NCBI GenBank assembly: GCA_965262725.1
Contig: OZ253555.1
Span: 2,784,001 to 2,848,000 of the forward strand
DNA: 64,000 bases
Origin: Dehalococcoidia bacterium
GTDB lineage: Bacteria > Chloroflexota > Dehalococcoidia > UBA2979
Direction of reading: 5' to 3'
The notes beneath the pieces are model-generated. The model saw only the letters and a program-made list of their open reading frames with translations. It was not told the DNA's origin and did not search any database. Of this stretch, positions 39,901 to 55,937 are shown one piece after another (position 1 is the stretch's first letter; every line of letters starts with the position of its first letter). The translations under genes were made by a program, and so were the position numbers.

Positions 39901-39981
39901 CGGCTCGGCCTCACCGAGGTCACGACGACGGTCGTGGTGAACAACGAGCCCGACGAGCCGGATACACCCGGCGGCGAGTAG
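36937..39981 (+). CDS. Class A penicillin-binding protein (transglycosylase-transpeptidase) with two C-terminal Ig-like repeats
   Basis: One N-terminal TM; GT51 motifs EDRNF, GSSITQQLAK, RKVKE; transpeptidase motifs STLK, SLN, KTG. Confidence 0.92.
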   Translation: MTSARLARKRRMRRNGGAAAAGDGGGRGRHLRWLLVAALSVAVFLVLTLAGVSGAAVYGISQYDEIADSVVPPAQLLDQLPRGGARIYDRNGVLLYEFVDELSGLRRPVPLAEISPWLVQATIATEDRNFFDNNGLNVRGLARAAVENFTPFGDEFLQGSGGSSITQQLAKNIYIPREERAERSVDRKVKETVIALELTRQYEKGQILEWYLNSISYGGIYVGIEAAAEGYFGKPASDLTLPEAALLAGIPQSPARFDPINNLPLAKIRQRDVLDLMVRSGAITGEQAEAAAEAEFVFKANRFDIEAPHFVLGRIAQEVEERFGPRALYEEGLEVVTTLDLTLQHEGERTVERWVSAFEEQSDGHNGALFALDPANGQILVYVGSRDYFRDDIEGRNDNIIAQNSPGSTLKPFTYMTAFMKGWNTGTGIIDQPVTIPDPATGEDFVPSNPGGRFRGILPAREALGNSLNIPAIKTILFAGVAETVDLLKQVGFTTLDNPLGYGPALTLGGVDITLHDITYAYSVLANQGLMRGQERRTEPEPGTRPLEPVALLRVADADGRVLYQFIEPTTRRVVPSNFTYLVTSIISDGDNQCLLFGCDALTLQGRPSAQKTGTSEPFEDSNAIGDTWAIGYTPELVSGVWAGNSDNSPMFDILSTSISWRSWRDFMNFAHEELELPPTKFVRPPGVESRELCWPSGRLPSETCPRVNRYTGLFATDVLPRNEVGRAAMEDTWWQPVLIDTRTGLAGGADTPSAFLVEEVRLVLPPDEIEEWDDLPDWAAAHGISGLLAPPAATDEAFPLVSVTSPLATQTVSRTLTIRGQADSPDFERLVVEWGRGTSPDVWVRLRASDRPVVDGILANWDTTTVPNGPYTLRVVVIDQRLGRLRFAVPVTIDNGDAGAGSDEAPWAAISWPGEGAVVSGAFVVTGSVITGDLLDARLEVGRGRVPSRWVEVGRIGQAQVSAAIGRWDTAEFENGTYTLRLTVRDRRLGLTEVTTTVVVNNEPDEPDTPGGE

Positions 39982-41665: not shown

Positions 41666-42925
41666 CTATGGAGTGACCGCCGCTGACTCCGGGAGACCCC
41701 ACGCCGCAGCGAGCTCCCGCAGCCGCTGCCGCGACGTCACGCTCCGCACCTCGCCGAGGAAGACGGCGAGGGAGCCCATTCGCTCGCGCAGCGCCCGCAG
41801 CTCCTCCCCCAGCGGATCGACCGAGTCCGCGCGCGCGGCGTACGTACCGAACCAGGCGAAGTAGGCCTGGTTGATGCGACGGATCACGATCCCCCCGGCT
41901 GCCAGCTCGTCGCGCGTCTGCTCCATCAGCCGCTCCGCATCAGCGATCCGCCCCTCGGCCAAGAGGTCGTCCACCGCGATGTGAAGCTCCCTCAAGGTCT
42001 CGGCCCGATACGACGCGCGCAGCGCCCGCGCCTCGTCGGGGGGCGCGTCCGACCCGCCTCCAAGCCCGGAACCCTCCGCCGCGGTTGGATCCCCGAAGCG
42101 TTCGAGGACCAAGACGGCCACCTCGTCTCCCACGATATCGGCGACGGTCTCGTTAATCGTGCGCAGCTCCTGCGAGCGGAAGTAGGAGAGACCGAGTGGG
42201 TAGAAGGCAAGGTAGTGGTGCACCCACTCGTGCGCGACGGTCGCAACGGTACCGGCGTAGCTGCGGTCGGCGCTGACCACGGCGGGGTAGAGCGCGATGC
42301 CGCCCGTCCGGAGGGCGACGGCCGAGATCGCCGCATCACCCGCCTCCCGCGCGCGCTCCAGCTCGACCGCCTCTTCGAGCGTCTTCCCGGGGGCCAGCAG
42401 CTCGTCGCCCGCGCGCTCGATGCGGTCGCGGGGGGAGGTGACGAGCACCCACGGCGATAGCGCGAGTTCGATGTCGACCGGGGGAAAGACAGAACCGGGA
42501 AGCGGGATACGCCCCTGGACGCGGAGCTCCCGGAGCACGGCGTCGACCCGCCCCTCGATCGCCGCCTCGACGGCGCCCTCCAGACGGGCGGCCGTCTCGC
42601 CGCGCCGATCGGCGAGCGCGAAGTAGCGCGCGATCGCCACATCCGCCGCGGGGTCATCGCGGAACGGGGCGCCCAGGGCATGCACCCATTTGTTGGGCGC
42701 GCTGGCCAGTTCCCAACGCAGATAGTCGTAGCGCTCGCCCCGACCCTCGAAGCGAAGGGCGAGCAGAGCGGTCCACAGGAGGGCGGCGGCTATGGCCACC
42801 GCAGCAGCGACCACGACCGCTCTCGTCCCCCGCCGCCCGCTCGCGCGACCGCCCCCGGGGACGACCGGGGCGTCGCCGGCGGGGCCTCGACGGGCCGGGT
42901 GAGCGGGGCGCTGCTTCTCTCCCAC
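41666..42925 (-). CDS. Membrane-anchored hypothetical protein, putative zinc metallopeptidase
   Basis: N-terminal TM; AHEWVHH (HExxH) followed by INETVAD. Confidence 0.55.
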   Translation of the reverse strand: MGEKQRPAHPARRGPAGDAPVVPGGGRASGRRGTRAVVVAAAVAIAAALLWTALLALRFEGRGERYDYLRWELASAPNKWVHALGAPFRDDPAADVAIARYFALADRRGETAARLEGAVEAAIEGRVDAVLRELRVQGRIPLPGSVFPPVDIELALSPWVLVTSPRDRIERAGDELLAPGKTLEEAVELERAREAGDAAISAVALRTGGIALYPAVVSADRSYAGTVATVAHEWVHHYLAFYPLGLSYFRSQELRTINETVADIVGDEVAVLVLERFGDPTAAEGSGLGGGSDAPPDEARALRASYRAETLRELHIAVDDLLAEGRIADAERLMEQTRDELAAGGIVIRRINQAYFAWFGTYAARADSVDPLGEELRALRERMGSLAVFLGEVRSVTSRQRLRELAAAWGLPESAAVTP

Positions 42926-43012
42926 ACGTCGAGCGTAGCGCGGAGGCGCTCGACGGATACGGTGCCGAGCGCTCGTATCGTCGGGTCCGCCCGGTGGCGT
43001 AGAGTAGCCTCA

Positions 43013-43552
43013 ATGCCGACCCCGCCTGCGGAACCGGGCCGTTCGCGGATCCTCGCGGCCGCCGCGATCGACGGCGTGCTGCTCGCCGCCCTCCACGCGG
43101 GCGCCCTCCTGCTCGCGACGGCATGGCTGCTGGCGCGATCCGGGCTCGGGCGCCTCGATGTCGGCAACATGGATGCCGCCGTCGCGCTCGCGGTCGCCGG
43201 AGCGGTGGCTCCCGCCTGGATCGCCTGGACGCTACTCGCCGCCCGCTGGCAGCTGGCCACGCCCGGACAGAGGGTCGCCCGGATCCGCCCCGTCCCGGCC
43301 GACGGCGCGACCCGCGGCGCTCTATACGTGCGGGCTGCGACGGCGCCGCTTTCGCTTCCGGGCTGGCTCTGGGCGGCGGCGACGCCGCTTCTCGCCGGCC
43401 TGCCGGCGTGGCTGGCGCTCCCGCCGCTGCTGGGAGCAACGGGCGTCGCGGTGACCGGGCTCGGATCGCTGGGCGTGCTGCTCGTCAGGCCGCGCGCTCG
43501 GCTGCTGCACGACCGGGTGGCGCGCACGACGCTGGTCGCGGTCGGGCCATGA
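43013..43552 (+). CDS. RDD-family membrane protein
   Basis: R.LAAAIDG, TPGQRVARI and LLHDRVART motifs. Confidence 0.7.
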   Translation: MPTPPAEPGRSRILAAAAIDGVLLAALHAGALLLATAWLLARSGLGRLDVGNMDAAVALAVAGAVAPAWIAWTLLAARWQLATPGQRVARIRPVPADGATRGALYVRAATAPLSLPGWLWAAATPLLAGLPAWLALPPLLGATGVAVTGLGSLGVLLVRPRARLLHDRVARTTLVAVGP

Positions 43553-44610
43553 GTGATCCCCCCCGGCAGCAGCACTTCGACTTCGGCGACGACGAGGTCG
43601 AGGGGGACGACGACGGAGCGACGGCCGCGCCTGAGACACCCGCGGAGGGGCCACCCGAAGGGGTCGCGCCCGCGCCCGACTCATCCGACCCCGCCGACCG
43701 GCCCGCCCCGGTGGTCACCGAGGACGGCGAGTACTGGTTCCCGCGCCGGGACGAGGAGATGGTCCCACGCGAGCTGCGCTCAGAGCGCTGGCTCGGGATG
43801 CGCAACGCCGCCGCATGGATCGCAGCCGTGGCGCTCGGCGGTCTCGCGGCGGCCGCACTCGTGGCGCACTCCGTCGTTCAGGCCACGAGCGATGAGGTCG
43901 CGCGGCCGGCGTTGAGGAACGCGATCAACGCGATCGCAGAGCCCGAGGCGCTCATCGATCTCCACTTCGAGCGCGTCGTGGAGGCCGCGACCCGCGCCGC
44001 GCCAGGCGAGGACGTCGTCGTACCGGGATATGCGGTCGTGGGCGTCGCGCTCACCGCGGAGGAGGCTGCGAGCGGGGATCGTGCACGGATGCGCGATGCT
44101 CTGCTGGAGCGCAGCGTCACGCTCGTCCGGGCCCAGGGCCGGCGCGCGCTCGCGGAGAGGGGGATCGCGCCGCCGGTGCGCGATCGGTTCTCCACGGCCG
44201 GCGCCGTCGCCGCCCTGCTGGACGGACTCACCACGGCGACCCACGAGAACTGGGCGGACTGGAGAACGAGGCTTGTAGTGGCGGCGGCGGTGCTCGGCGT
44301 CGCCGTGGCCGCACTGCCGCGTGGCTTCAACGGCGTCCTCGGGCTCGGGGCGGCCCTGCTCGGGGCGGGTGTCCTCGTGGCCGTTGGCTCGCTGGTGCTG
44401 CGCGTCGCGCTCTCCGCCGCGAGCGTCGAGGGCGCCCTTCTCGACGAGTACCTGCGGATCGGGCGCGACCTGACTCTCATCCCGCTGCGGAATGGCATCG
44501 TGCTCGGCGCTGCGGGAGCGGTTCTGGTGTTGCCGGCGGCGATGCTGCGAGCCTTCTTCGAGCGCTCAGAAATACGTGCGCCGCCGACCACTGCCGGCGG
44601 AGCGGGGTGA
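43549..44610 (+). CDS. Hypothetical membrane protein with acidic N-terminus
   Basis: ATGA overlap with the RDD gene; about 4 hydrophobic segments. Confidence 0.55.
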
Positions 44611-44750
44611 AGTGGGGGACGAGAGCGGTGGCGGCGACGGCGCCCCGGCGGGCCGTCGCCCGGCGCCGGTTGACGGGTGCGCGGGCGGGGGATAGCGTCC
44701 CGTGTCGCGCCGTGGGCGCCCATCACGACGCCCCACCCGGAAGGTCCCGC

Positions 44751-45842
44751 ATGCTGCGCAACCCGCGCACCTTCGTCGAGCCACTCGCGATCGGGGCACC
44801 GGCGCCGCCTCGCGAGATCCCGGCGCGGCCGATGCGGATGGTCCACTTCTTCGACCCGAGCCACCCGCGAATGCGCGCGCGCATTCCGCAGATCATCCCC
44901 CAGGTGGATGTCCTCCTCGGCAACCTGGAGGACGCGATCGCCGCCGACAAGAAGGATGAGGCTCGCGCCGGGTTGATCGAGATCGCGCGCGAGAACGACT
45001 GCGGCGACACCGCGCTCTGGACCCGCGTCAACAGCCTCGACTCGCCGTGGTTCCTCGACGACATCACGGAGCTCGTCGCGACGATCGGCGACCGGCTCGA
45101 CGTGATCATGCTCCCCAAGGTGAACGGCCCGTGGGACATCACCTTCCTCGACCAGCTGTTGGCGCAGCTCGAGGCGAAGCACGCCATCCGGAAGCCACTG
45201 TTGGTGCACGCCGTCCTAGAGACAGCGATCGGCGTCGCCAACGTCGAGGAAATCGCCACCGCCAGCCCGCGCATGCAGGGGATGAGCCTTGGCCCCGCGG
45301 ACCTCGCCGCGTCGCGACGCATGAAGACGACGCGGGTCGGTGGCGGGCACCCGGGTTATGTCGTGCGGAGCGATCCCGACCCCGCAGACGCCGACGCGCC
45401 TCGGCCGACCGCGCAGCAGGATCTATGGCACTACACCATGGCGCGCATGGTGGACGCCTGTAACGCGGCGGGCTGCTACCCGTTCTACGGCCCCTTCGGC
45501 GACATCGCCGACCCCGTGGCCTGTGAGGATCAGTTCCGGAACGCGTTCCTGATGGGATGCGTCGGGGCGTGGTCCATCCACCCGAGCCAGATCGAGATTG
45601 CCAAGCGCGTCTTCTCCCCGCCCGCAGACGAGGTCGCCTTCGCACGCCGCATCACCGAGGCGATGGGCGACGGCTCCGGCGTGATCATGCTCGATGGAAA
45701 GATGCAGGACGATGCGACCTACAAGCAGGCGCAGGTCATGCTGACCACCGCGCGCCGGCTCGCCGAGCGAGACGCCGAGCTCGCCGCGCTCTACGGTTTC
45801 GAAAGCGGCTCCGGCGGGGGCGACGCCGCCCCGCAGGGCTAG
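44751..45842 (+). CDS. mcl: L-malyl-CoA/beta-methylmalyl-CoA lyase, Chloroflexus type
   Basis: [60 protein letters not shown], co-linear with C. aurantiacus Mcl as recalled. Confidence 0.88.
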
Positions 45843-45857
45843 GCGGCGGGAAGAGCG

Positions 45858-47072
45858 ATGCGCTTCTACGAGTTTGAGGCGAAGCAGCTGCTGCGGCGGC
45901 GCGGCGTTCCGCTCCCCGGAAGCCGGCTCGCGCACACGGCCGACGAGGCCGCGGATGCGCAGCGCGCGCTCGGCGGCCCGGTTGTCCTCAAGTCGCAGGT
46001 ACTCAGCGGCGGCCGCATGAAAGCGGGCGGCGTGCGCTTCGCCGATACCGCCGAGGAGGCCCGCAGCGCCGCCGAGGCCATCCTCGCGCTCTCGATCAAC
46101 GACCAGCGCCCCACCGGCGTGCTGGTCGAGCAGAAGGGCGAGATCGCGCAGGAGTACTACGCCGCCGTGACGTGGGACGGTCGAGCGAAGCGCCCCGTCA
46201 TCATCTTCAGCGACATGGGGGGCATCGACATCGAGGAGGTCGCCGAGACACACCCCGATCACCTCTCCCGCACGCACCTCTCGACCCTGCGCCCGCTCTC
46301 CGACTACCAGGCGAAGCTCGCCGTCGCGCGCACCGGCGTGACCGGCGGCGACCTCAACCGCCTCGGCCGCATCGTGCTCCAGCTCGCGCGCGCCTTCCGC
46401 GAACACGACCTGACGCTGGCGGAGATCAACCCGATCGGGAAGCTCACGGACGGCAGCATCCTCGCTCTCGACGCGCACATGGAGATGGAGGCGGAGGCGC
46501 GCGGCACGCACCGCGCCCTCCTCGCCGAGCTCGGGATCCCCGAGCACGACACCCGCCAGGCGCGTCCGCCCACCCCCTTCGAGGTCGCGGGTGCCCGAGT
46601 GGACGCCCAGGACACCCGCGGCGTCGCCGGCAACGTCACCGAGTTCTCGGGCACGCTCGGGCTCGTGATCGGGGCGGGCGGCGGCTCGCTCACCCTCTTC
46701 GACGCGGTGCGCGCCGCCGGCGGCGACCCCGCGAACTACTGCGAGGTCGGGGGCAATCCCTCGGTGCGCAAGACGGCCGCCCTCACGCAGCTCATCGTCT
46801 CGAAGCCGGGCGTAGACAAGATCGCGGTGATGATGAACGTCGTCTCCAACACCCGGGTCGACATCATGGCGCGCGGCGTGATCAAGGGGGTGATCGACGC
46901 CGGATTCGACCCGGCCGAGAAGATCGCGATCTTCCGCATCCCCGGCTCCTGGGAGGAGGAGGGCTTCGCCATCCTCAGGCGCTACGGCGTCGAGTACGTG
47001 GACCGGTCGGTCTCGATGCACGAGGCGGCGAGGCGCGCCGTCGCGAAGCTCGCTCGACCGGACGGGGGCTAG
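45858..47072 (+). CDS. ADP-forming acyl-CoA ligase beta subunit (SucC/MtkA-like, ATP-grasp)
   Basis: YEFEAK, VVLKSQVLSGGRMKAGGV, GGIDIEE, EINP, PANYCEVGG. Confidence 0.85.
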   Translation: MRFYEFEAKQLLRRRGVPLPGSRLAHTADEAADAQRALGGPVVLKSQVLSGGRMKAGGVRFADTAEEARSAAEAILALSINDQRPTGVLVEQKGEIAQEYYAAVTWDGRAKRPVIIFSDMGGIDIEEVAETHPDHLSRTHLSTLRPLSDYQAKLAVARTGVTGGDLNRLGRIVLQLARAFREHDLTLAEINPIGKLTDGSILALDAHMEMEAEARGTHRALLAELGIPEHDTRQARPPTPFEVAGARVDAQDTRGVAGNVTEFSGTLGLVIGAGGGSLTLFDAVRAAGGDPANYCEVGGNPSVRKTAALTQLIVSKPGVDKIAVMMNVVSNTRVDIMARGVIKGVIDAGFDPAEKIAIFRIPGSWEEEGFAILRRYGVEYVDRSVSMHEAARRAVAKLARPDGG

Positions 47073-47076
47073 CCGC

Positions 47077-47979
47077 GTGTCGATCCTCATCGACCGCGAG
47101 AGCACGTTCATCATCCAGGGGATCACGGGCCGCGAGGCCGTGACGATGGCCAGAGAGCTCCTGGACTACGGCGCGAAGTTGCTGGGCGGCGTCACGCCCG
47201 GGCGCAAGGGGCGAGAGGTGCACGGCGTTCCCGTGGAGGACACGGTGCGGGCGTTCACGGAGCGGACGCGAGTGGACGGCTCCATCGTCGTGGTCCCGCC
47301 GGCGTTCGCCGCCGACGCCGTGCACGAGGCCATCGAGGCCGGCGTGAAGCTGATCGTCGTCGTGACCGAGCGCATCCCGCGCAGGGAGGTCGCGGAGTTC
47401 GTGGAGCACGCCGAGCAGGAGGGCGCCCGCGTCATCGGCCCCAACTGTCTGGGTATCATCTCGCCGGGGAAGTCGCGGATGGGAGGGATCGGCGGCTCGG
47501 CGGACGCCACGCGCCGAGCCTTCCATCCGGGATCGGTCGGCGTGATGTCGCGCTCCGGCGGGATGACGGTCGAGATCGCGAACGCGCTCTCTCAGGCGGG
47601 GCTCGGCATCTCGACGGCGTGCTCAATCGGAGGCGACGCCATTATCGGCTCCACCTACGCCGAGCTCATGCCGCTCTTCGAGGGGGACCCGGAGACGCAG
47701 GGGATCGCCATTTACAGCGAGCCGGGCGGGCGCGCGGAGGCGGCGCTCGCCGAGTACATGGAGGCCGTCTCCTCGCGCCTTCCCGTGGTGGCCTTCATGG
47801 CCGGTCGCTTCATGGACGCTATGCCGGGGATGCGCTTCGGCCACGCCGGGACGATCGTGGAGGGACGCGAGGACACGACCGCGGAGAAGATCGAGCGCAT
47901 GGAGCGAGCCGGGATCGCCGTCGCCGACCGGATCGAGCACATCCCCGCGCTCCTGCGCGAGAGGATGGGCGCACGCTGA
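47077..47979 (+). CDS. ADP-forming acyl-CoA ligase alpha subunit (SucD/MtkB-like)
   Basis: IQGITG, IGPNCLG, SRSGG, IGGD, phospho-His motif FGHAG. Confidence 0.88.
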   Translation: MSILIDRESTFIIQGITGREAVTMARELLDYGAKLLGGVTPGRKGREVHGVPVEDTVRAFTERTRVDGSIVVVPPAFAADAVHEAIEAGVKLIVVVTERIPRREVAEFVEHAEQEGARVIGPNCLGIISPGKSRMGGIGGSADATRRAFHPGSVGVMSRSGGMTVEIANALSQAGLGISTACSIGGDAIIGSTYAELMPLFEGDPETQGIAIYSEPGGRAEAALAEYMEAVSSRLPVVAFMAGRFMDAMPGMRFGHAGTIVEGREDTTAEKIERMERAGIAVADRIEHIPALLRERMGAR

Positions 47980-48206
47980 TGCCGGACGGGCTCTTCATCC
48001 GCGTCGACATCGCCGAGTCGGTCCAGAAGGACCCGGAGCTCGTACAGCGCCTGATCGAGGTCTGTCCCGTCGACATCTTCGATCGGGCGGAGGGGGGTGG
48101 CGTGACGACGGTGACGGCGAACCTCGACGAGTGCACCCTCTGCGACCTCTGTATTCAGGCCGCGGGCGACGACCGCGTCCGAGTGGTGAAGCTTTACGCG
48201 GAGTAG
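47979..48206 (+). CDS. Small ferredoxin-like protein
   Basis: VCPVDIF and CTLCDLC; TGATG overlap with the ligase alpha gene. Confidence 0.75.
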   Translation: MPDGLFIRVDIAESVQKDPELVQRLIEVCPVDIFDRAEGGGVTTVTANLDECTLCDLCIQAAGDDRVRVVKLYAE

Positions 48207-48215
48207 GGGGCGACG

Positions 48216-48737
48216 ATGGCGACGATGCTGATCTCCGAGTCGATGGCGGACGGGCTCTCGCTCCAAGTGGGGCGGGAGTTCCAGGCCTCCCTCCAGTACG
48301 AGATGCTCGCGGCCTACTTCGAGCGAGAGGCGCTCCCCAATCTCGCCGCCCGCTACCGCGGGCAGGCCGAGGAGGAGCGGAGTCACGGACTCAAGCTGAT
48401 CGCCTTCCTCAACAACGCGGGCGCCATCGTCCGCATCCCCGCGATCGAGGCCGGGCAGGCCGAGTTCTCCTCACCCATGGAGGCGCTTGAACTCGCGCTG
48501 ACGAGCGAGACCGAGGTCACGAAGGCGATCAACACGCTGATGGATCTCGCCCTCGAGGAGCACGATCACATGTCGCGCGGCCTGCTCCAGTGGTTCGTCG
48601 ACGAGCAGCTCGAGGAGGTCGCAACCGCCGATGCGCTCGTGATCGTCGCCCGGCGCGCCAGCGGCGACCTCCTCTACCTCGAGCAGTACGTCGCGGGGCT
48701 CCCTGCGCCCGGCACCGAGGCCGACGCCCCGGCTTAG
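48216..48737 (+). CDS. Ferritin (non-heme)
   Basis: E..ASLQY, QAEEERSH, E.EVTKAI, LQWFVDEQLEE ferroxidase residues. Confidence 0.88.
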   Translation: MATMLISESMADGLSLQVGREFQASLQYEMLAAYFEREALPNLAARYRGQAEEERSHGLKLIAFLNNAGAIVRIPAIEAGQAEFSSPMEALELALTSETEVTKAINTLMDLALEEHDHMSRGLLQWFVDEQLEEVATADALVIVARRASGDLLYLEQYVAGLPAPGTEADAPA

Positions 48738-48996
48738 GCAGCAGCCGGCGCCCGCACCTGGTCTGATCTCTCGCAGGAGGCCGTCTCGCATCGACCCGGC
48801 AGCGCCGTAGCGGAAGCGACGACGACCTCATGAGGGCCCTGCGTCGAGGGAGAGCGGGTCGACGAGGAACTCATGGTGCTCCGTCCGACGGGAGAGCGGT
48901 AGGAGCACTCACACCGCGGCCGCTCCCTCCCACGCCCGGGCGGCCAGAGGTCGACGCGACTCGCGCTACGCTCGCGCGCAGTGAGAGCGGGACGAA

Positions 48997-49308
48997 TCAG
49001 AGCGCGCCGTCTCCCGTCGCCGACGGTGGCGGTGGCGGTGGCGGTGGCGAGATCGTCGGGCGGCCGTGCATCGCGATCTCCGTGTCGCGCTCCTGCCGGC
49101 GCAATGCCTCACCCGAGCAGCCGCGCGCACGCAGCTGACGCTCGAACATCTCGCGCTCGTGGCGGGCCGCCAGGAGTTCCGCGCGGCCGAAGCGGCCGCT
49201 CGTGTCGACGACGACCGCGTGGTACCGGCGCCACTCGCGGTAGAGCTCGGCACACCTCTCGTCGTGCTCGTGGCCGGGAGCGACGGACGGCTCCTCCGCC
49301 ACGGTCAT
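48997..49308 (-). CDS. Hypothetical small protein with poly-Pro tail
   Basis: ATGA overlap with the rpiB stop; GGAGG upstream. Confidence 0.55.
   Translation of the reverse strand: MTVAEEPSVAPGHEHDERCAELYREWRRYHAVVVDTSGRFGRAELLAARHEREMFERQLRARGCSGEALRRQERDTEIAMHGRPTISPPPPPPPPSATGDGAL
49025..49048. repeat. (GGTGGC)4 hexamer tandem repeat encoding poly-Pro on the minus strand
   Basis: Seen directly. Confidence 0.8.
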
Positions 49309-49753: not shown

Positions 49754-51424
49754 CTAGCCCCCGCGCGCGGCGCGTGCCAGAAGCTGGCGGCCGATCACCT
49801 TCAGCTCCAGCACTGGCTTGACGCCCTCGAAGATCGGGAGCACCAGCGCGTCCACGACGTACCGCGCGATCGGGTCCTCCTCGGAGAAACCCCAGCCGCC
49901 GTGCAGAAGCTGCGCCTCGCGCGTCACCTCGCCCGCGATGTCGCAGGCCAGGAGCTTCGCCATCGCCGGCTCCACGGCGCGTGTGTCGAAGTCCCGGGCC
50001 GCGACGTAGGTCAGCTGCCGCGCCGCCGCCGTGTGCGTCGCCATCACGCCGATCTTGTGCTGGGTCAGCTGGTACTCGGCGAGCGGGAGCCCAAACTGCG
50101 AGCGCTGCGTCACGTACTGACACGCCTTCTCGAGACCGGCCTGCGCCACGCCGATCGCGCGACCGCCGGTCTGCAGCCGTCCCGCGGCGAAGCCGCCCAT
50201 CTGCACGAAGAAGCCGTTGCCGATGCCGTCGTCCCCGCCGACCAGATTGGAATGCGACACCCAGACATCGTCGAGCGCGATCGTAAAGGAGTGCATGCCG
50301 CGGTAACCCGGCGTGGGGTTCGCCGTCCCCTCCATGACGCCACCCTGCGGCTGCTCGTAGCGCCAGTGGTGCCCCTCGAAGGTGGGTTTCGGCACCATGA
50401 AGAGCGAGAGACCGCGGTTGCCCGAGGCGGGATCGGGATCGGTGCGCGCGAGCAGGGCGAGTACGGTGGCGCGCCCGGAGAACGTGCTCCACGCCTTCTG
50501 CCCGCTGATGCGCCAGCCGCGCACGCCCTCGTGCTCGGAGGGGACGGCGCGCGTCTGGAGCGAGGCGACATCGGAGCCCACATCGGGCTCCGTCACCGCA
50601 ATCGCCACCAGTTCCTCGCCGGTGGCGATGCGCGGCAGCCACTGCGCGCGCTGCTCATCCGTGCCGCCGGAGAGGAGTGCCTTCGTCAAGATCTCCGGAC
50701 GCGTAGCGAGCGATCCGGCCGCCGCCAGCGACGCCATCGAGAGCTCTTCGGTGATGATGATCATCGGGAGATCGCCCATACCCGTCCCGCCGTACTGCTC
50801 CGGGATCGAGGACCCGAAGAAGCCCTGGCGCGAGAAGGCCTCCAGCAGCGAGTCGGGCACGAGCATGTCCTCGCGATGGATCTGCTGGGCGATCGGCGCG
50901 ACCTCGTTACGGGCGAACTCGCGTGCCATGTCGCGCGTCAGCGTGGCCGTCTCGTCCTCGAGGTCGACGTTGTTTGCGCCGAGGGTGGCGATCACCTCTC
51001 GGCCGAGCTCGCGCAGCCGCCCGTCCGCAAGGCCGCCGCGCAGTTCCACTCGGAGCGCCGGCTCGAGCAGCGGGCCGAGGTCGTCCTCCTCGAGCCCGAA
51101 CTCCCCCCACGCCGCCTCGATCGCCGAGCCGAGCGCGTGCGCGATCTCGGCCGCGTAGGCGTGCGCCATCATCGCCTGCCGCCAGTCCGGCTGGCCCTTC
51201 GCGGCGAGACGCTCTGCGTACGAAGTGAGTTCGTGCGCGGCCCGCACCTGCGTCGCGAGGTAGGAGACGCGCTCGACGTGCACCTGATGGTCGTCGATCC
51301 GGCGGCCGCCCTCGGTGAGCGCCGCAGCGCTCCGAAGCGCCGCACCAACAACACTCGTCGACGCCTCTACCAGCCGCCGCGCCGAGGCGATGGCCGCGCC
51401 CGGCGTGGTCTCCGTCGTCGTCAT
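49754..51424 (-). CDS. Acyl-CoA dehydrogenase, (2S)-methylsuccinyl-CoA dehydrogenase-like
   Basis: 556 aa with N-terminal extension; GSLATRPEI, TEPDVGSD, GYRGM, RLQTGGRAIG, IFEG; adjacent to mch. Confidence 0.75.
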   Translation of the reverse strand: MTTTETTPGAAIASARRLVEASTSVVGAALRSAAALTEGGRRIDDHQVHVERVSYLATQVRAAHELTSYAERLAAKGQPDWRQAMMAHAYAAEIAHALGSAIEAAWGEFGLEEDDLGPLLEPALRVELRGGLADGRLRELGREVIATLGANNVDLEDETATLTRDMAREFARNEVAPIAQQIHREDMLVPDSLLEAFSRQGFFGSSIPEQYGGTGMGDLPMIIITEELSMASLAAAGSLATRPEILTKALLSGGTDEQRAQWLPRIATGEELVAIAVTEPDVGSDVASLQTRAVPSEHEGVRGWRISGQKAWSTFSGRATVLALLARTDPDPASGNRGLSLFMVPKPTFEGHHWRYEQPQGGVMEGTANPTPGYRGMHSFTIALDDVWVSHSNLVGGDDGIGNGFFVQMGGFAAGRLQTGGRAIGVAQAGLEKACQYVTQRSQFGLPLAEYQLTQHKIGVMATHTAAARQLTYVAARDFDTRAVEPAMAKLLACDIAGEVTREAQLLHGGWGFSEEDPIARYVVDALVLPIFEGVKPVLELKVIGRQLLARAARGG

Positions 51425-51463: not shown

Positions 51464-52561
51464 CTAGCGCGCCATGGGCATCAGCACCGTGTAGTCGAGA
51501 TCGAGCACGACCGCGGGGTGGTAGCGCTCGCGGCCGTTCTCGCCCCTCACGCGCAGCGTCACGTCCTCGGTTGCCGGATCGGCGTTCTTCGCCGCTACCA
51601 GGCGCAGCCTGAGCGCGGCGGCGTCCGGGCGCCCGAGGTCGATACGCTCGAGCACGTCTGTCCACGCGAAGATGGTGTCGCCCGCGAAGGTCGGGCTCGC
51701 GTGCGTGCCGCCGTTGAAGGCGAGCACGCGGACCGCGTTCTCCAGTCCATTGAACGAGAGCTCCCGCGCCACGGAGATGACGTGGCCGCCGTAGATCACG
51801 CGGCGCCCGAAACGGCTCCCCTTCAGGGCATGCGCGTTGAAATGCGCGCGGGCCGTATTCTGGTAGAGACGCGCGGCCATCTGGTGCTCCGCCTCCTCGA
51901 TCGCGACACCCTCCACGTGGTGAATGCGCTCGCCCGCCTCGTAGTCCTCCCACCACGCGCGGCCGCCGGTCACTGCGGGATCGAAGGCGGCGAGGTCGAG
52001 TTCGGGCGGGACCACCAGGTCGGTGCTCGTGACGACGTCCGGCGTCGCCGGCGCGTCGTCGATTCCGGTCACCTCATCCGGCTCGCGCTTCGCCATGAGC
52101 ACCCAGCGGAGGAAGGAGAGCACCTCCTCGCCCCGCTGATTGCGGCCCACCGTGTGCACCCAGACGGCGCCGGTGTCACCGGAGCGCGACTCCCGGCGGC
52201 CGAGCACCGTCGTGCGCGAGCTGAGCGTGTCGCCGGGGTAGACAGGGGGGCCGAAACGCACGTCCGCGTAGCCTAGGTTGGCGATGGCATTGAGCGAGAT
52301 ATCCGGAACGGTGTTGCCGAACACGATGTGGAAGACGAGGAGATCGTTGACAGTCTCCCGCCGGAAGCCGAGTGCGCGCGCGAACTCGGCGTCGCAGTGC
52401 AGGGGGTAGCGGCTGGCGGTGAGCGCGATGTAGAGCGACTGATCGCCCTCGGTGACCGTGCGCGGCACGGCATGCTCGACCTCAAGCCCGGTCACCAGGT
52501 CCTCGAAGTAGTTGCCCGTGGTCGCCTTGCCGACCGCGGTCGCCGCCTCCCCTTTCGCCAC
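51464..52561 (-). CDS. mch: Mesaconyl-C1-CoA hydratase (double MaoC hot-dog fold)
   Basis: GNYFED, FHIVFGNTVPDISLNAIANLGY, IEEAEH...RLYQNTA..HFN, YGGHVIS, VVLDLDYTVLMP; co-linear with Chloroflexus Mch as recalled. Confidence 0.88.
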   Translation of the reverse strand: MAKGEAATAVGKATTGNYFEDLVTGLEVEHAVPRTVTEGDQSLYIALTASRYPLHCDAEFARALGFRRETVNDLLVFHIVFGNTVPDISLNAIANLGYADVRFGPPVYPGDTLSSRTTVLGRRESRSGDTGAVWVHTVGRNQRGEEVLSFLRWVLMAKREPDEVTGIDDAPATPDVVTSTDLVVPPELDLAAFDPAVTGGRAWWEDYEAGERIHHVEGVAIEEAEHQMAARLYQNTARAHFNAHALKGSRFGRRVIYGGHVISVARELSFNGLENAVRVLAFNGGTHASPTFAGDTIFAWTDVLERIDLGRPDAAALRLRLVAAKNADPATEDVTLRVRGENGRERYHPAVVLDLDYTVLMPMAR

Positions 52562-52676
52562 GCGCACCCCCCGCCCGCGCCCATTGTAGGGCGAGGGGAT
52601 CGATACGCGCCCGGAGCGCCGGCGGGGGTCGATATACTGCGCTCGGACGGCAAACGACCGGGAAGGGAGAGGCGAC

Positions 52677-52904
52677 GTGGGGTCCAAGGAGCTAGCGGCG
52701 CTGCTCACCGTGCTTGAGCAGGAGCTCGCGCGCGGGCGCGAGGGGCACATCATCGGAACGTGGACGATCCGGTACGAGAAGGAGCGCAGCGCGTTCTCCT
52801 TCGACAAGTGCGAGAACGACGGCTACTGCGAGGAGCGGCCCGCCGTGCTCGCGCTCGACGGCTCCGTGCTCGACCCGGGCGGCCCGATCGTGATCGGGGG
52901 TTGA
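52677..52904 (+). CDS. Hypothetical 75-aa protein with CxxxxxC
   Basis: GGAGAGG RBS, upstream TATACT at 52633-52638, typical codon usage. Confidence 0.6.
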   Translation: MGSKELAALLTVLEQELARGREGHIIGTWTIRYEKERSAFSFDKCENDGYCEERPAVLALDGSVLDPGGPIVIGG

Positions 52905-52908
52905 GGCC

Positions 52909-53784
52909 ATGACGGACACGACGTCGGTGGCCGACCTCTCACACTGCGCGGTCGCCGTGCGCGACCTCGACGAGGCAGTCACCACCTACGAGCGGCTCTT
53001 CGGGCTTCAGGTCGGTGAGCGAGGCGCGAACCCGTGGGGGCACTTCCGCTGGGCGCAGATGGGCTGGGCCGGCGAGCAGGCGATCCAGTTGATCCAGCCG
53101 GAGAGCGACGACACCCACGTGACGCGCGTGATGCGTGCACGTGCCACGGAGAAGAACCCGCACGGTGAGGGCTACTACATCTCCGTCTGGACCACACCGG
53201 ATCCTGCCGCCCTCGCCGCGCGCATCGAGTCGAGCGGCGGGCGCGTGATCGACCGCGGCGACGGATCCGGCGTCCACTGGGTGCACCCCTCGGCGGCGCA
53301 CGGCGCCTTCCTCGAGATCGTTCCTCAGAAGGCGCCCACGCCGGAGGGGACCCCGCTTCGGATCTCGCACCTCGGGGTCGCGGTCGCCGACCTCGACGAG
53401 GCCGAGGAGACCTTCCGAGAGCGCTTCGGCTGGGTCCGCCCGGACGAGCGATGGGTGCTCGAGTCGGGCGACTTCGAGGCCGCCTCGATCTTCGCCGGCG
53501 ACGCGCAGGCGATGACACTGATCCAGCCGCGCACCCCGGAGAGCCCGATAGCCGTCGAGATGCGCAGGCGCGCCGACGAGAAGAACCCGCGCGGCGAGGG
53601 GCCGCACATCTCGGTCTGGACGTCGCCCGACACGGCCGCCGTCGCCGAGCGCATCGAGGCGGGCGGCGGCCGTGTGATCCGGACGTCGGGCTGGCCCGGC
53701 GCCGGCAGCATGCTGATCCCCCCGTCGGTGACGCACGGAATGCTCATGGAGGTGACGCCCCAGCGCGCCGAGCCAGCGCACTAG
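52909..53784 (+). CDS. VOC-family protein with two methylmalonyl-CoA-epimerase-like modules
   Basis: Internal duplication SH.AVAV.DLDEA...LIQP...EKNP.GEG..ISVWT.PD.AA.A.RIE..GGRVI...HG...E. Confidence 0.75.
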   Translation: MTDTTSVADLSHCAVAVRDLDEAVTTYERLFGLQVGERGANPWGHFRWAQMGWAGEQAIQLIQPESDDTHVTRVMRARATEKNPHGEGYYISVWTTPDPAALAARIESSGGRVIDRGDGSGVHWVHPSAAHGAFLEIVPQKAPTPEGTPLRISHLGVAVADLDEAEETFRERFGWVRPDERWVLESGDFEAASIFAGDAQAMTLIQPRTPESPIAVEMRRRADEKNPRGEGPHISVWTSPDTAAVAERIEAGGGRVIRTSGWPGAGSMLIPPSVTHGMLMEVTPQRAEPAH

Positions 53785-54467: not shown

Positions 54468-55745
54468 CTAGAACTCGCGGCGGCGGAGTTGACCCGCCGG
54501 GCGGCGGTAGTAGGCGATCAGATCCGTGGGCGGACGCGCCGCGAGGACGAGCGGGACGCCGACGGCGACGACCGCCGCCGAGATCAGCCAGCCCGGCGTG
54601 TAACCGCCCCCCGAGTCGACGATCAACCCCACCGTGAGGGGCCCCCCGAACGACCCGATCGTGACCCACAGTCGGGAGAGACCGGCGATCGTGCCGAAGC
54701 TCGTCGTCCCGAAGTAGTCGGCGAGCAGAGCCGGACGGAGTGGGGCCGTCCCGCCGAAGCCCGGCGCCACGATCAGCATCACGAGGTAGCTCTGCTTGAG
54801 GGTGTGCACAAGCGGCATTAGCGCGATCCCCACCGCCATCAGGGCAATCGCACCGGCGAGTATCACGCGCTTATCGTAGCGATCGGCGAGCCAGCCGCCG
54901 GAGAGACGCCCCACGACCGAGGCGAGCGCGAAGGCGAGCACCGTGCTCCCCGCCTCCGCCTTGGAGACGCCCAGCGACTCCATGAACGGCACCTGGTGCA
55001 CGATCAGGGCGGTCCAGCCGAAGCCGTTGGCAATGAGGCCGAGCGCGAGCAGCAAGAAGGCGCGCGTCCGGATCGCGCGGCGCGCGGGGATGCCCCAGGC
55101 ATCGCCCCGGGCGCCGCCGTCGTCCGCAGCGGCCGGGAGACCATCCATCGGCTGCGGATGCCCCCGGGGCCGGCGGCGCACGTTGACCCCGGCGAGCGAA
55201 CCGGCGAGCAGCACGACGACCGCGAGCACGCGGAGGGCGATGCGCCATCCGAGCTCGTCGACGAGCAGCGCCACCGGCACCGTCATCACACCCGCCGCGG
55301 CGCCCCCCAGCGAGAGCATCGCCAGCGCGCGGCCGCGGCGCGCCTCGAACCAACTCGCCGCGGCCACCGTGCCGACCGGCCCCGAGGCGGAACTGATCCC
55401 GAGCGCGATCAGCACCATCGCCAGGTAGAACTGCCAGATGCTCTCCATGTAGGAGGTCAGCAGGACCCCCAAACAGACCAGTGCCAGCCCGCCGATCAAC
55501 ACCCTCTGCGGACCAAGTCGGTCGATGGCGACGCCGATCACGGGCGCGGCGATGCCGCCCGCCTCCGAGCGCACCGAGAAGGCGAGGCTCGTCGCCGCCA
55601 CGCTCCAGCCGAACTCGTCGATGATCGGGTTGAAGATTGTGCCGAAGCCGTAGAAGAAGGCGCCCCCGATGAAGGTGGTGATCGCAGCCGCCGAGAAGAC
55701 GACCAGCCAGCCTTCGTAGACGTTCGGGAAGAGGCGCCTGAGCAC
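54468..55745 (-). CDS. MFS transporter (OFA/MCT-like)
   Basis: Y.GWLVV, EFGWS, WFEARRGRA, GWLADRY, DYFG...FGTI; about 12 TM. Confidence 0.85.
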   Translation of the reverse strand: MLRRLFPNVYEGWLVVFSAAAITTFIGGAFFYGFGTIFNPIIDEFGWSVAATSLAFSVRSEAGGIAAPVIGVAIDRLGPQRVLIGGLALVCLGVLLTSYMESIWQFYLAMVLIALGISSASGPVGTVAAASWFEARRGRALAMLSLGGAAAGVMTVPVALLVDELGWRIALRVLAVVVLLAGSLAGVNVRRRPRGHPQPMDGLPAAADDGGARGDAWGIPARRAIRTRAFLLLALGLIANGFGWTALIVHQVPFMESLGVSKAEAGSTVLAFALASVVGRLSGGWLADRYDKRVILAGAIALMAVGIALMPLVHTLKQSYLVMLIVAPGFGGTAPLRPALLADYFGTTSFGTIAGLSRLWVTIGSFGGPLTVGLIVDSGGGYTPGWLISAAVVAVGVPLVLAARPPTDLIAYYRRPAGQLRRREF

Positions 55746-55937
55746 CGGCCCGCCCCTCGCCCCTGCGCGCCGCCCGCGCGACGGGCGTCGGGCCGGCCTC
55801 ACGCTCCGATGACGCTCTCCCTCGCGTCCGCCATCATACAGAGGCTCGCGCCGGCGGCGGCCTTGCGGCGACGCCCGGCCTCGTGCACGGTGCGCGGGCG
55901 CCGGGGCCGCCCTGCGAGGTGTGGCGAGGAGCGTGCC

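Follow-up and report, generated by a model that had tools for sequence, protein, structure and literature searches.

The locus described here raised the question of which acid is joined to CoA, or released from it, by a two-subunit ligase whose genes directly follow a gene for a malyl-CoA lyase (Mcl). It lies in a window of 64,000 nucleotides from the genome of a Dehalococcoidia bacterium. Genes of this ligase family are automatically annotated as succinyl-CoA synthetase, citryl-CoA synthetase or mtkAB, and our literature searches found no assay, description or characterisation of the family. In the Binatota papers, mtkA/B and mcl are annotated by KO number. The initial annotation had proposed that the pair was not the SucCD of the TCA cycle but an acid thiokinase that acts with Mcl. 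From the evidence presented below, the probable reaction of the ligase family is the ATP-linked interconversion of malate, or of a closely related acid, and the corresponding CoA ester.

Gene organisation of the locus

The genes of the locus are listed in Table 1. The lyase stop codon (TAG, 45840-45842) was separated from the beta ATG at 45858 by a purine-rich stretch of 15 nt (gcggcgggaagagcg), the same spacing as had been noted initially, and a gap of 4 nt lay between the end of the beta TAG at 47072 and the alpha GTG at 47077. A scan of positions 44000-49000 found no promoters or terminators. Short near-exact metatranscriptome contigs matched the alpha gene in run X19 (47474-47718 and 47893-48000) and run X20 (47433-47669); these were two runs of one study, their contigs fell on alpha only without bridging one gene to another, and they came from an RNA library that possibly contained DNA. 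They do not demonstrate an operon transcript, and the lack of contigs on the remaining stretches carries no weight.

Table 1. Genes of the ligase locus, with positions in the window.
Gene	Position	Strand	Features
Mcl (lyase)	44751..45842	+	HpcH_HpaI and solved-structure matches; longest ORF from 44607
Ligase beta subunit	45858..47072	+	404 aa; SucC-like N-terminal ATP-grasp, CcsA-like C-terminal acid-binding domain
Ligase alpha subunit	47077..47979	+	300 aa; CoA-binding and phosphohistidine domains
Ferritin/Dps-like	48216..48737	+	Between ligase and mcd; Pfam Ferritin 104.2 bits
Mcd, (2S)-methylsuccinyl-CoA dehydrogenase	49754..51424	-	Long N-terminal extension; acyl-CoA dehydrogenase Pfam domains
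Mch, mesaconyl-CoA hydratase / beta-methylmalyl-CoA dehydratase	51464..52807	-	Pfam MC_hydratase 78.3 bits
Tandem glyoxalase/VOC-fold protein	52909..53784	+	Pfam Glyoxalase_4 and Glyoxalase_3
MFS transporter	54468..55802	-	Pfam MFS_1 143.5 bits

The lyase belonged to the HpcH_HpaI family (87.9 bits) and showed close full-length similarity to solved and characterised Mcl enzymes (4L7Z_A, 6KIN_A). Its match to 4L7Z/4L80 and 6KIN reached 507.7 bits (E 2e-151) over residues about 52-398 of the longest reading frame. Since this homology begins near residue 52, translation likely starts at ATG 44751 and not at GTG 44607. By sequence, the enzyme is a Chloroflexus-type (S)-malyl-CoA/beta-methylmalyl-CoA/(S)-citramalyl-CoA lyase. 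Lyases of this type cleave citramalyl-CoA and beta-methylmalyl-CoA as well as malyl-CoA, and CitE proteins are by ancestry citryl-thioester lyases.

Mcd and Mch also had matches in the PDB. Mcd scored 412.8 bits to 8CIW_A over its full length and 275.6 bits to 6ES9_A, and Mch scored 398.6 bits to 4E3E_A and 349.9 bits to 8HGN_A. The VOC-fold protein was a weak candidate for an ethylmalonyl-/methylmalonyl-CoA epimerase, with 70.6 bits to TIGR03081 (methylmalonyl-CoA epimerase) against a cut-off of 114.95. The MFS transporter, a possible carboxylate carrier, was syntenic in a few close relatives, and 7 of 80 related loci had it in their flanks. The Ferritin/Dps-like gene kept its place in 8 of the 80 and is probably a neighbour outside the pathway.

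Sequence features and domains of the ligase

All domains of the NDP-forming acyl-CoA synthetase superfamily (SCS/ACL/ACD) were found in the two subunits, including ATP-grasp_2 (163.7 bits), CoA_binding (75.9 bits) and Ligase_CoA (47.8 bits), together with the catalytic histidine (His256) in the GHAG motif at residues 255-258 of alpha. Judged from these domains, the catalytic apparatus is complete. Both motifs that had first drawn attention to the pair were present, GLVIGAGGGSL at residues 268-278 of beta and SRSGGMT at residues 158-164 of alpha. The former, written as G[LI][VI]IGAGGGS, recurred in every one of the 80 related beta genes. SRSGGMT and GHAG were each found in 75 of 75 alpha genes, these being the ones with a tblastn match spanning the motif region. 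The conservation of the beta and alpha motifs was beyond chance. AGGGAS, the version of the beta motif in ATP-citrate lyases, was seen in the alignment to Chlorobium AclB (6HXJ_A), and SRSGGMS is presumably the corresponding ACL-type motif in alpha.

Further motifs, GGNPS and SNTRVD, were located in the C-terminal acid-binding domain of beta. The C-terminal insertion typical of CCS/ACL enzymes (RPPT..E..D..D.RG.AG) was also present in beta, along with the GGGGS-type, GGNP and NNTR.D motifs that it shares with CcsAB and AclAB. Asn346, Thr348 and Arg379 are candidate citrate-binding residues of human ACLY, and the comparison made here is one of domains and motifs. According to PMC13670275, the citrate site of human ACLY is formed by domain 5. 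When residues 210-404 were searched alone, the best PDB match was CcsA of Hydrogenobacter thermophilus (6HXQ_B, 76 bits), with SucC chains at 22-41 bits and AclB at 38. Thus, the acid-binding domain of beta is, on these sequence features, of the citryl-CoA-synthetase/ATP-citrate-lyase type. At the level of the whole protein the picture was different: the best PDB match of beta was Thermus SucC (182.8 bits), and alpha was overall nearer to SucD (243.7 bits, archaeal) than to CcsB (178.7) or AclA (120.4). In a Foldseek search of the PDB with a structure model of beta (pLDDT 84.8, pTM 0.61), SCS beta chains came first (E 2e-36), and the modelled fold was thus confirmed as SCS-beta. Thermus SucC ranked 1 and CcsA ranked 17, with a high rmsd from domain orientation. 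Because Foldseek did not separate SucC from CcsA, we left the whole-protein fold search out of the argument for a CCS-like enzyme.

Relation to SucCD, MtkAB and citryl-CoA synthetase

Both subunits scored below the equivalog cut-offs of succinyl-CoA synthetase (beta 235.4 bits against 370 for SucC, NF001913; alpha 277.4 bits against 336 for SucD, NF004230). Beta was also far below the cut-off of the MtkA model for the malate-CoA ligase beta subunit (NF010647, 183.2 against 604 bits). The score distribution was bimodal, with orthologues at 467 bits or more, then 244 and then 207 or less. A separate canonical sucCD, for which the initial annotation had advised a search, was found in the same genome at C1:3104210-3106279 (460.3 bits against the TIGR01016 cut-off of 375.55). 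The identity of beta to this SucC was 35% and that of alpha to this SucD 40%, and in the alignment the canonical SucC had GCLVNGAGLA where beta has the GAGGGS loop.

In a tree of beta subunits, the SucC side (40 rows, the genome's own SucC included) was parted from the GGGG-type (citryl-CoA-synthetase/ATP-citrate-lyase) side by branches with SH-aLRT support of 99, and the ligase of the window was on the GGGG-type side. Its family (support 100) formed a separate paralogous group inside a 21-row clade (99), apart from the CcsA/AclB-like clade of 7 rows (99), which was labelled through the representative P0154 (292.5 bits to 6HXQ_B). The tree contained 83 of 150 representatives (360-450 aa), 4 family members, the beta of the window and the genome's own SucC, whereas P0152, P0160, P0161, P0164, P0209, P0248 and P0272 were dropped as partial or frame-scrambled. 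It came from a 'quick' search of beta alone, with SH-aLRT as the only support, a midpoint root and no MtkA reference; the motif labels assigned by regular expression were wrong for P0143, P0201 and P0257. Judged from scores and tree, the ligase is not the TCA-cycle SucCD, and by its MtkA score it is not orthologous to MtkAB. The central claim of the initial annotation and its ACL/CCS-type reading of the motifs therefore held: the pair neither nests in canonical SucCD nor is the only sucCD of its genome.

We regard it as improbable that the ligase is a second succinyl-CoA synthetase, dedicated to the succinyl-CoA that the ethylmalonyl-CoA pathway derives from propionyl-CoA, or acting as the sole such enzyme in some genomes. 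The best matches of the whole proteins to SucCD and the SucC chains at the top of the fold search would fit such a role. The domain architecture and the phosphohistidine mechanism are also common to the ligase and SucCD. A canonical sucCD was, however, present in 16 of 19 carriers of the ligase as well as in the genome of the window. Moreover, the NGAGLA loop of SucC was invariantly GAGGGS in the ligase family, the acid-binding domain fitted CcsA twice as well as SucC, beta fell outside the SucC side, and succinate offers no rationale for the conserved adjacency of a lyase. The other 3 of the 19 carriers (completeness 54, 84 and 96%) had no second SucC-type match; therefore, the ligase might be the succinyl-CoA synthetase of these three.

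The likeness to CcsAB and AclAB raised another alternative, namely a true citryl-CoA synthetase that works with a CitE-type citryl-CoA lyase, i.e. a two-enzyme ATP-citrate lyase with a CitE fold. Like these systems, the ligase is a two-subunit ADP-forming enzyme that shares their side of the tree, and a separate lyase is predicted to cleave its 3-carboxy-3-hydroxyacyl-CoA product. The CcsA-like C-terminal domain, the ancestry of CitE and the JGI label of many members ('succinyl-CoA synthetase beta subunit/citryl-CoA synthetase large subunit') point in the same direction. In contrast, beta matched Pfam Citrate_bind (PF16114) only partially (profile positions 26-121) and below the gathering score (20.6 against 26.8 bits), whereas the genuine CcsA-like P0154 reached 107.9 bits. 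The family forms a clade other than that of CcsA/AclB, its ATP-grasp half and alpha subunit are more SucCD-like, and its partner is close to characterised malyl-CoA lyase and has the CitE/Mcl TIM-barrel fold, not the citrate-synthase fold of the CcsAB/AclAB lyases. In addition, its setting is that of the ethylmalonyl-CoA pathway and not that of the reductive TCA cycle. We consider this alternative very unlikely.

Distribution and gene context of the family

The ligase family was large and highly conserved, and species genomes contained at least 597 loci. Each of the 80 loci kept for analysis derived from a MAG or an uncultured record, and the organisms belonged to the Dehalococcoidia, Solirubrobacterales, Binatia and Myxococcota. 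Of these 80 loci, 62 had Mcl in their flanks and 50 had a MaoC/Mch-type hydratase somewhere in theirs. Among the 50 loci with full flanks of 5 kb, a CitE/Mcl-type lyase was present in 41, a hydratase in 21 and an acyl-CoA dehydrogenase in 14; within 1.5 kb, the lyase was found at 36 of 68 loci and the hydratase at 11. A count at 10 kb was meaningless, as only 2 loci had full flanks of that width. The linkage of ligase and lyase occurred in two gene orders and in several phyla, and the coupling to Mcl suspected from a single locus is thus conserved.

The ligase also co-occurred with crotonyl-CoA carboxylase/reductase (Ccr). In the class sample, Ccr scored above the cut-off in 15 of 19 carriers but in 19 of 132 non-carriers, ratios that overstate the association because kin are not independent. 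Among 24 carriers from other phyla, Ccr was found in 17, gave no match in 6 and gave a partial match below the cut-off in 1. In the clusters L103, L104 and L106, the ligase was accompanied by Ccr, a mutase, MaoC/Mch, a CitE-like lyase and an acyl-CoA dehydrogenase (Mcd or a different one). An anti-correlation of malate synthase with the ligase, although expected, was not clear (2 of 19 carriers, 26 of 132 non-carriers). Malate synthase was also missing from 16 of the 19 Ccr-positive genomes that lacked the ligase; therefore, another solution exists.

Compact clusters of hydratase, ligase, lyase and MFS transporter genes were found in carriers without Ccr, e.g., L046 in genome G167, where a separate MFS gene follows mcl. 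By their gene content, the L046-type clusters resemble a module that breaks down an unsaturated C5 diacid. Such clusters raise the possibility, which we consider rather doubtful, that the acid activated by the ligase is a C5 dicarboxylate akin to the other substrates of Mcl. Citramalate could be converted to citramalyl-CoA and cleaved to acetyl-CoA and pyruvate; alternatively, mesaconate, itaconate or methylsuccinate could enter as a CoA ester that is processed by the neighbouring MaoC-type hydratase (and Mcd) and then cleaved by Mcl. The resulting ligase-dependent pathway would resemble the Ict/Ich/Ccl route for itaconate, or the step at mesaconate in the citramalate and methylaspartate cycles. 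The frequent hydratase, the MFS transporter that is syntenic in close relatives of the window and the known activity of Chloroflexus-type Mcl on citramalyl-CoA and beta-methylmalyl-CoA are consistent with a C5 substrate, and citramalate, the closest analogue of citrate, fits a CCS-like pocket. The hydratases of L023, L046 and L103 scored 120-159 bits to RipB/Ich, but these scores do not discriminate because the genuine Mch of the window scored alike (115.4 bits). The NCBIfam models did not separate Mch from itaconyl-CoA hydratase types, as the hydratases of L046 and L023 and the Mch of the window had near-equal, sub-threshold scores.

Several observations argue against a C5 diacid. The tightest neighbour of the ligase is the lyase and not the hydratase or Mcd, and the 15-nt spacing hints at an intermediate shared by the two enzymes, with which citramalate is still compatible. 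No methylaspartate ammonia-lyase scored above the cut-off (25 bits). The strong association with Ccr is in keeping with the ethylmalonyl-CoA pathway, where CoA esters are the only form of mesaconate and methylsuccinate. Among the functions proposed initially, those based on malate or malyl-CoA were favoured by the context. Activation of methylsuccinate had the least support, since linkage to the ligase was less frequent for the dehydrogenase than for the lyase.

A possible malate-CoA ligase of the ethylmalonyl-CoA pathway

On sequence and context, we give about an even chance to the ligase being a reversible ADP-forming malate-CoA ligase that is not an MtkAB orthologue and is tied to the ethylmalonyl-CoA pathway. 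The products of both genes would form a heterodimer that belongs to the succinyl-CoA-synthetase superfamily and works as an ADP-forming acid-CoA ligase; alpha would provide the CoA site and the phosphohistidine, and beta the ATP-grasp and acid-binding domains. The predicted reaction is (S)-malate + ATP + CoA <-> malyl-CoA + ADP + Pi. Malyl-CoA and citramalyl-CoA are 3-carboxy-3-hydroxyacyl thioesters, as is citryl-CoA, so a CCS-type pocket would suit the substrates of Mcl. The short gap between mcl and the beta gene suggests that the product of the ligase is the substrate of the lyase, and the product or substrate of the ligase may be passed directly to Mcl.

In the proposed route, Ccr, the mutase, Mcd and Mch would act before Mcl produces glyoxylate and propionyl-CoA, and glyoxylate would then be joined to acetyl-CoA to give malyl-CoA. 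The ligase would close the route by converting malyl-CoA to malate with a gain of ATP in place of hydrolysis. In the ethylmalonyl-CoA pathway as depicted in PMC8307300, this conversion comes last, sets free an acid and has a dedicated thioesterase. The ligase is proposed to occupy the same position as Mcl2, the malyl-CoA thioesterase of Rhodobacter sphaeroides, which acts beside Mcl1. However, Mcl2 is a CitE paralogue from an unrelated protein family, and the ligase would keep the thioester energy as ATP, reversibly. The genome of the window had two further CitE paralogues, L092 and L093, either of which could be an Mcl2-type thioesterase; in that case, the ligase would be unnecessary for forming malate from malyl-CoA.

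A close functional parallel would be MtkAB of serine-cycle methylotrophs (EC 6.2.1.9), also a ligase of the SucCD superfamily that adjoins malyl-CoA lyase and co-occurs with the ethylmalonyl-CoA pathway; its reaction is the one proposed here for the ligase of the window. It differs in that the ligase of the window has a CCS-type acid-binding loop and its main direction may be ATP-forming. In settings like the serine cycle, the ligase could run in the opposite direction. In the genome of the window, we found no malate synthase and only three weak matches to the ICL superfamily (48-51 bits), in favour of the proposed function, and a single PF01642 mutase, which counts against it. Of the markers of the serine cycle and methylotrophy, no PQQ alcohol dehydrogenase scored above the cut-off and no MOFRL glycerate kinase was found, while formate-THF ligase was present. 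These markers are too thin to fix the direction of the reaction, and we infer both substrate and direction from the family and its context.

A broader and more tentative proposal is that the family, perhaps with the whole 21-row radiation that is sister to CcsA/AclB, supplies the ligase of a two-enzyme 'ATP-malate lyase', which in reverse would be an ATP-conserving 'malate synthase'. A CCS-like synthetase would here be paired with a CitE-fold lyase, in a mechanistic parallel to CCS/CCL and ATP-citrate lyase, although the fold of the lyase is another one. The reverse mode would operate in uncultured Dehalococcoidia, Solirubrobacterales, Binatia and Myxococcota, thousands of them in all, as an energy-saving variant of the ethylmalonyl-CoA pathway with substrate-level phosphorylation in place of the malyl-CoA thioesterase.

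Implications

If the proposed function is correct, metagenome surveys that rely on the automatic labels of the family may wrongly report a reductive TCA cycle or a serine cycle. Together, malate thiokinase and Mcl are a module of synthetic carbon-conserving pathways, for which a new malate thiokinase family, if confirmed, would be of practical interest. On the same condition, malate thiokinase arose twice in the superfamily, on the SucCD side (MtkAB) and on the CCS/ACL side, and the evolution of ATP-citrate lyase and citryl-CoA synthetase would gain a living intermediate. [quoted passage not shown]

Organization of the ligase locus

The window (C1:2784001-2848000) had a G+C content of about 71% and belonged to a genome assembled as a single contig of 3.67 Mb. 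Its genes were mapped from a list of ORFs filtered by third-position G+C, together with family scans. Translation bore out the two motifs read in the initial annotation, GLVIGAGGGSL in the beta subunit (residues 268-278) and SRSGGMT in the alpha subunit (residues 158-164), as well as the close spacing of mcl and beta: the mcl TAG ended at 45842 and the beta ATG was at 45858, leaving a purine-rich spacer of 15 nt. The alpha GTG followed the beta stop after a 4-nt gap, and alpha kept the phosphohistidine motif GHAG with His256. Short near-exact metatranscriptomic contigs matched alpha alone in two runs of one study, which was weak evidence of expression.

Genes and ORFs around the ligase (window coordinates)
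Feature	Position	Strand
PBP1a-type gene	36937-39981	
419-aa protein	41666-42925	-
ORF upstream of mcl	43123-44610	+
HpcH/CitE-family lyase (Mcl)	44607/44751-45842	+
Ligase beta	45858-47072	+
Ligase alpha	47077-47979	+
Ferritin-like gene	48216-48737	+
Long acyl-CoA dehydrogenase (Mcd)	49754-51424	-
MaoC/mesaconyl-CoA hydratase (Mch)	51464-52807	-
Tandem glyoxalase-fold protein	52909-53784	+
MFS transporter	54468-55802	-

The 419-aa protein had no Pfam match and contained the HExxH-like string HEWVH; it may be an uncharacterized metallopeptidase. Together with the upstream PBP1a-type gene it was syntenic in 13-14 of 80 related loci. The 1.7 kb upstream of mcl (42926-44606, plus strand) held a single ORF that failed the third-position G+C filter and had no Pfam match; its product had an Arg/Ala-rich N-terminus and a hydrophobic-looking C-terminal half. 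A comparable gap preceded mcl in related loci, and the ORF is a doubtful candidate gene, possibly beginning further downstream.

Separation from canonical SucCD and MtkAB

According to Pfam, beta and alpha contained the full domain set of the succinyl-CoA synthetase (SCS) superfamily, and the ligase shared its architecture with SucCD. With the NCBI models, both subunits fell below the equivalog cut-offs (beta 235.4 vs. 370 for SucC, alpha 277.4 vs. 336 for SucD), and beta scored just 183.2 against the malate thiokinase beta model (cut-off 604). A separate canonical sucC (460.3 bits, above the cut-off) with an adjoining sucD was located 275 kb away; its products were 35% (SucC) and 40% (SucD) identical to beta and alpha. 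The ligase was thus a paralogue, in agreement with the proposal from the sequence that it is not the TCA-cycle SucCD.

In a sample of 151 genomes from the same class, beta match scores were bimodal: orthologues scoring 467 bits or more, at 56-100% identity, were present in 19 genomes, a single genome had an intermediate match of 244 bits, and every other match was at most 207 bits. A second, SucC-type match was present in 16 of the 19 carriers. The other three (completeness 54, 84 and 96%) favored a succinate isoenzyme, a reading that we considered improbable.

Position in the SCS/CCS/ACL superfamily

Among solved structures, the whole beta subunit matched Thermus SucC first (182.8 bits), with Hydrogenobacter CcsA close behind (160.7). 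Its acid-binding C-terminal part alone (residues 210-404) matched CcsA at 76 bits, SucC chains at 22-41 and Chlorobium AclB at 38, and its alignment with CcsA spanned an insertion (RPPT..E..D..D.RG.AG) that was absent from SucC. The whole alpha subunit scored higher with SucD (243.7 bits) than with CcsB (178.7) and AclA (120.4). A fold search with a predicted structure of beta confirmed the SCS-beta fold, with no finer discrimination.

When 1.84 billion cluster representatives were searched exhaustively with HMMER, 581 proteins matched at E <=1e-30, many of them with 36-51% identity. We built a tree of 89 rows from 83 of the 150 listed representatives (of the 581), four family members, the window beta and the SucC of the same genome. 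Branches of 99 SH-aLRT split a SucC side (40 rows with an NGAGLA-type loop, including the genome's own canonical SucC) from a GGGG-type side. The window's ligase family formed seven rows with support of 100, nested in a 21-row clade (99) with the motifs G[GA]GG[AG]S and YCE[IV]GGNP. CcsA/AclB-like sequences were in another, distinct 7-row clade (99), whose label rested on the representative P0154 (292.5 bits to CcsA 6HXQ_B and a full Citrate_bind domain at 107.9 bits). Taken together, the scores and the tree placed beta as CCS-like in its acid-binding domain yet outside CcsA/AclB, SucC and MtkA. The nearest known systems were CcsAB/AclAB, MtkAB and SucCD. With CcsAB and AclAB, the window ligase shared the type of acid-binding domain, but it differed from them in clade and in lyase fold. 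The window beta stayed under the Citrate_bind cut-off with 20.6 bits, and we regarded citrate as a very improbable substrate.

Spread and conservation

Among the matches listed in a word-indexed search, 120 proteins had 68-91% identity; they were labeled as hypothetical, 'ATP-grasp domain-containing', 'succinyl-CoA synthetase beta subunit' or '.../citryl-CoA synthetase large subunit'. In an alignment of 13 sequences, IGAGGGSLTLFD, PANYCE.GGNPS and SNTRVD were among the extended stretches without variation. A one-genome-per-species scan confirmed at least 597 ligase loci, 80 of which were kept. All 80 were MAGs or uncultured records, with titles from Dehalococcoidia/Chloroflexota, Solirubrobacterales/Thermoleophilia and other Actinomycetota, Binatia, Deltaproteobacteria/Myxococcota and a few others. 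The motif G[LI][VI]IGAGGGS was found in 80/80 betas, and SRSGGMT and GHAG in all 75 alphas covered.

Linkage to the lyase

The window Mcl was closely related to the solved Chloroflexus/Roseiflexus malyl-CoA/beta-methylmalyl-CoA/citramalyl-CoA lyase (507.7 bits, E 2e-151). Downstream and divergent were the methylsuccinyl-CoA dehydrogenase Mcd (412.8 bits to 8CIW, full length including the N-terminal extension) and the mesaconyl-CoA hydratase Mch (398.6 bits to 4E3E). Alpha followed beta in 77 of the 80 loci. An Mcl (at least 56% identity) flanked the ligase in 62 of the 80; it was upstream of the ligase in Chloroflexota and Actinomycetota and 3' of alpha in the deltaproteobacterial/Binatia group. 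Where full flanks were available (n=50 for 5 kb, n=68 for 1.5 kb), a lyase was present within 5 kb in 41/50 loci and within 1.5 kb in 36/68, compared with 21/50 and 11/68 for a MaoC/Mch hydratase and 14/50 and 5/68 for an acyl-CoA dehydrogenase.

A Chloroflexus-type Mcl at E <=1e-60 was found in just 8 of the 19 class-sample carriers. Six loci were fetched from carriers without it: in four (L103, L104, L106 and L107) beta and alpha adjoined a CitE-family lyase of lower similarity (28-31% identity), and in L105 and L108 no CitE-family lyase was found within the stretch fetched.

An intermediate pair at L109 (G021:C33:27001-46000; beta 37% and alpha 47% identical to the window's) had a CitE-like lyase about 1.3 kb away, which hints that the wider sister clade may be lyase-coupled too. 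In the class sample, family f23 (G022, G060, G084, G103, G121 and G138) had a Chloroflexus-type Mcl (64-69% identity), malate synthase in all six genomes and no ligase orthologue, its SucC-type matches being weak and N-terminally shortened. Thus, some relatives used Mcl without the ligase. In a Solirubrobacterales-type MAG (L023, 1944-4501, minus strand), the genes directly upstream of mcl encoded a GTP-dependent PEP carboxykinase and a half-size MaoC hydratase, and mcl was separated from the ligase by an Rrf2 regulator and an ABC importer; this grouping of PEPCK, mcl and ligase recalls serine-cycle clusters.

The ethylmalonyl-CoA pathway context

The genome encoded a genuine crotonyl-CoA carboxylase/reductase (Ccr; 542.6 bits, cut-off 378.55) and one acyl-CoA mutase large subunit. 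Malate synthase was not found in it, the ICL superfamily gave just three weak matches, and no methylaspartate ammonia-lyase scored above the cut-off. Ccr was above the cut-off in 34 of the 151 class-sample genomes, namely 15/19 ligase carriers vs. 19/132 non-carriers, and in 17/24 carriers from other phyla. The four Ccr-negative class-sample carriers were 54, 74, 84 and 96% complete.

Several loci combined these genes. The order was CitE-like, beta, alpha, MaoC, Ccr, acyl-CoA dehydrogenase, MaoC, mutase in L103; mutase, acyl-CoA dehydrogenase, alpha, beta, two CitE-like genes, Ccr in L104; and mutase, Mch, Mcd, CitE-like, beta, alpha in L106. L075 (Binatia) also had 3-hydroxybutyryl-CoA dehydrogenase and Mcd. 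At the end of the pathway, as outlined in a review (PMC8307300), Mcl makes malyl-CoA and a malyl-CoA thioesterase frees malate. This last step was the obvious place for an acid-CoA ligase.

Among the carriers from other phyla (G151-G174), Ccr was seemingly on the ligase contig, about 17-37 kb away, in 12 of the 17 Ccr-positive genomes, and a partial, below-cut-off Ccr was similarly placed in G161; these distances (loci L023, L024, L027, L033, L049, L050, L053, L060, L061, L066, L069, L072 and L075) assume that contig numbers (C4, C13 etc.) match the record numbering. The sole PF01642 mutase found in the window's genome (L099, G000:C1:1547000-1549264) was a large subunit with no fused B12 domain, scoring 630 bits against the methylmalonyl-CoA mutase equivalog (cut-off 876). 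Its relatives (56-68% identity) were located in Ccr/Mcd/ligase clusters of other genomes, and it may be an ethylmalonyl-CoA mutase. If so, methylmalonyl-CoA mutase was unaccounted for in this genome. Next to ccr (L098) were a tartronate-semialdehyde-reductase/3-hydroxyisobutyrate-dehydrogenase-like gene (G000:C1:859694-860638; 294.4 bits, cut-off 340.75) and a thiolase (G000:C1:858112-859269; 428 bits, cut-off 421).

Proposed function

We gave about an even chance to malate as the substrate; the enzyme would then work reversibly as an ADP-forming (S)-malate-CoA ligase and exchange malyl-CoA with the adjacent Mcl. The lyase was its tightest neighbor, and the ethylmalonyl-CoA pathway context would supply malyl-CoA. 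Citryl-CoA, like malyl-CoA and citramalyl-CoA, is a 3-carboxy-3-hydroxyacyl thioester; thus, a CCS-type pocket next to a lyase for such esters was chemically coherent. On the other hand, the genome had two more CitE paralogues that were possible thioesterases, and no anti-correlation between malate synthase and the ligase was found in the class sample. Moreover, compact hydratase-ligase-lyase-MFS clusters in Ccr-negative carriers resembled mesaconate/itaconate catabolism, pointing to a C5 diacid (citramalate, mesaconate, itaconate or methylsuccinate), which we judged the next most likely substrate after malate, though clearly less likely. The remaining probability went to some other reading.

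If the malate assignment is correct, the malate-forming direction would keep the thioester energy as ATP, and the malyl-CoA-forming direction would give a role like that of malate thiokinase in a serine-cycle-like scheme. Such a role was assumed for Binatota by the KO-based annotation of a preprint. MtkAB shares with the window ligase the reaction proposed here and the gene neighbor but was not orthologous to it.

Our literature search, which covered the Binatota papers short of their supplementary detail, turned up neither a description nor an assay of this family; the only related statements in it were KO-level 'mtkA/B' counts in Binatota genomes. The ligase family is a conserved, widespread and uncharacterized branch of the SCS/CCS/ACL superfamily. 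Its metabolic neighborhood is well supported, and malate is a candidate substrate.
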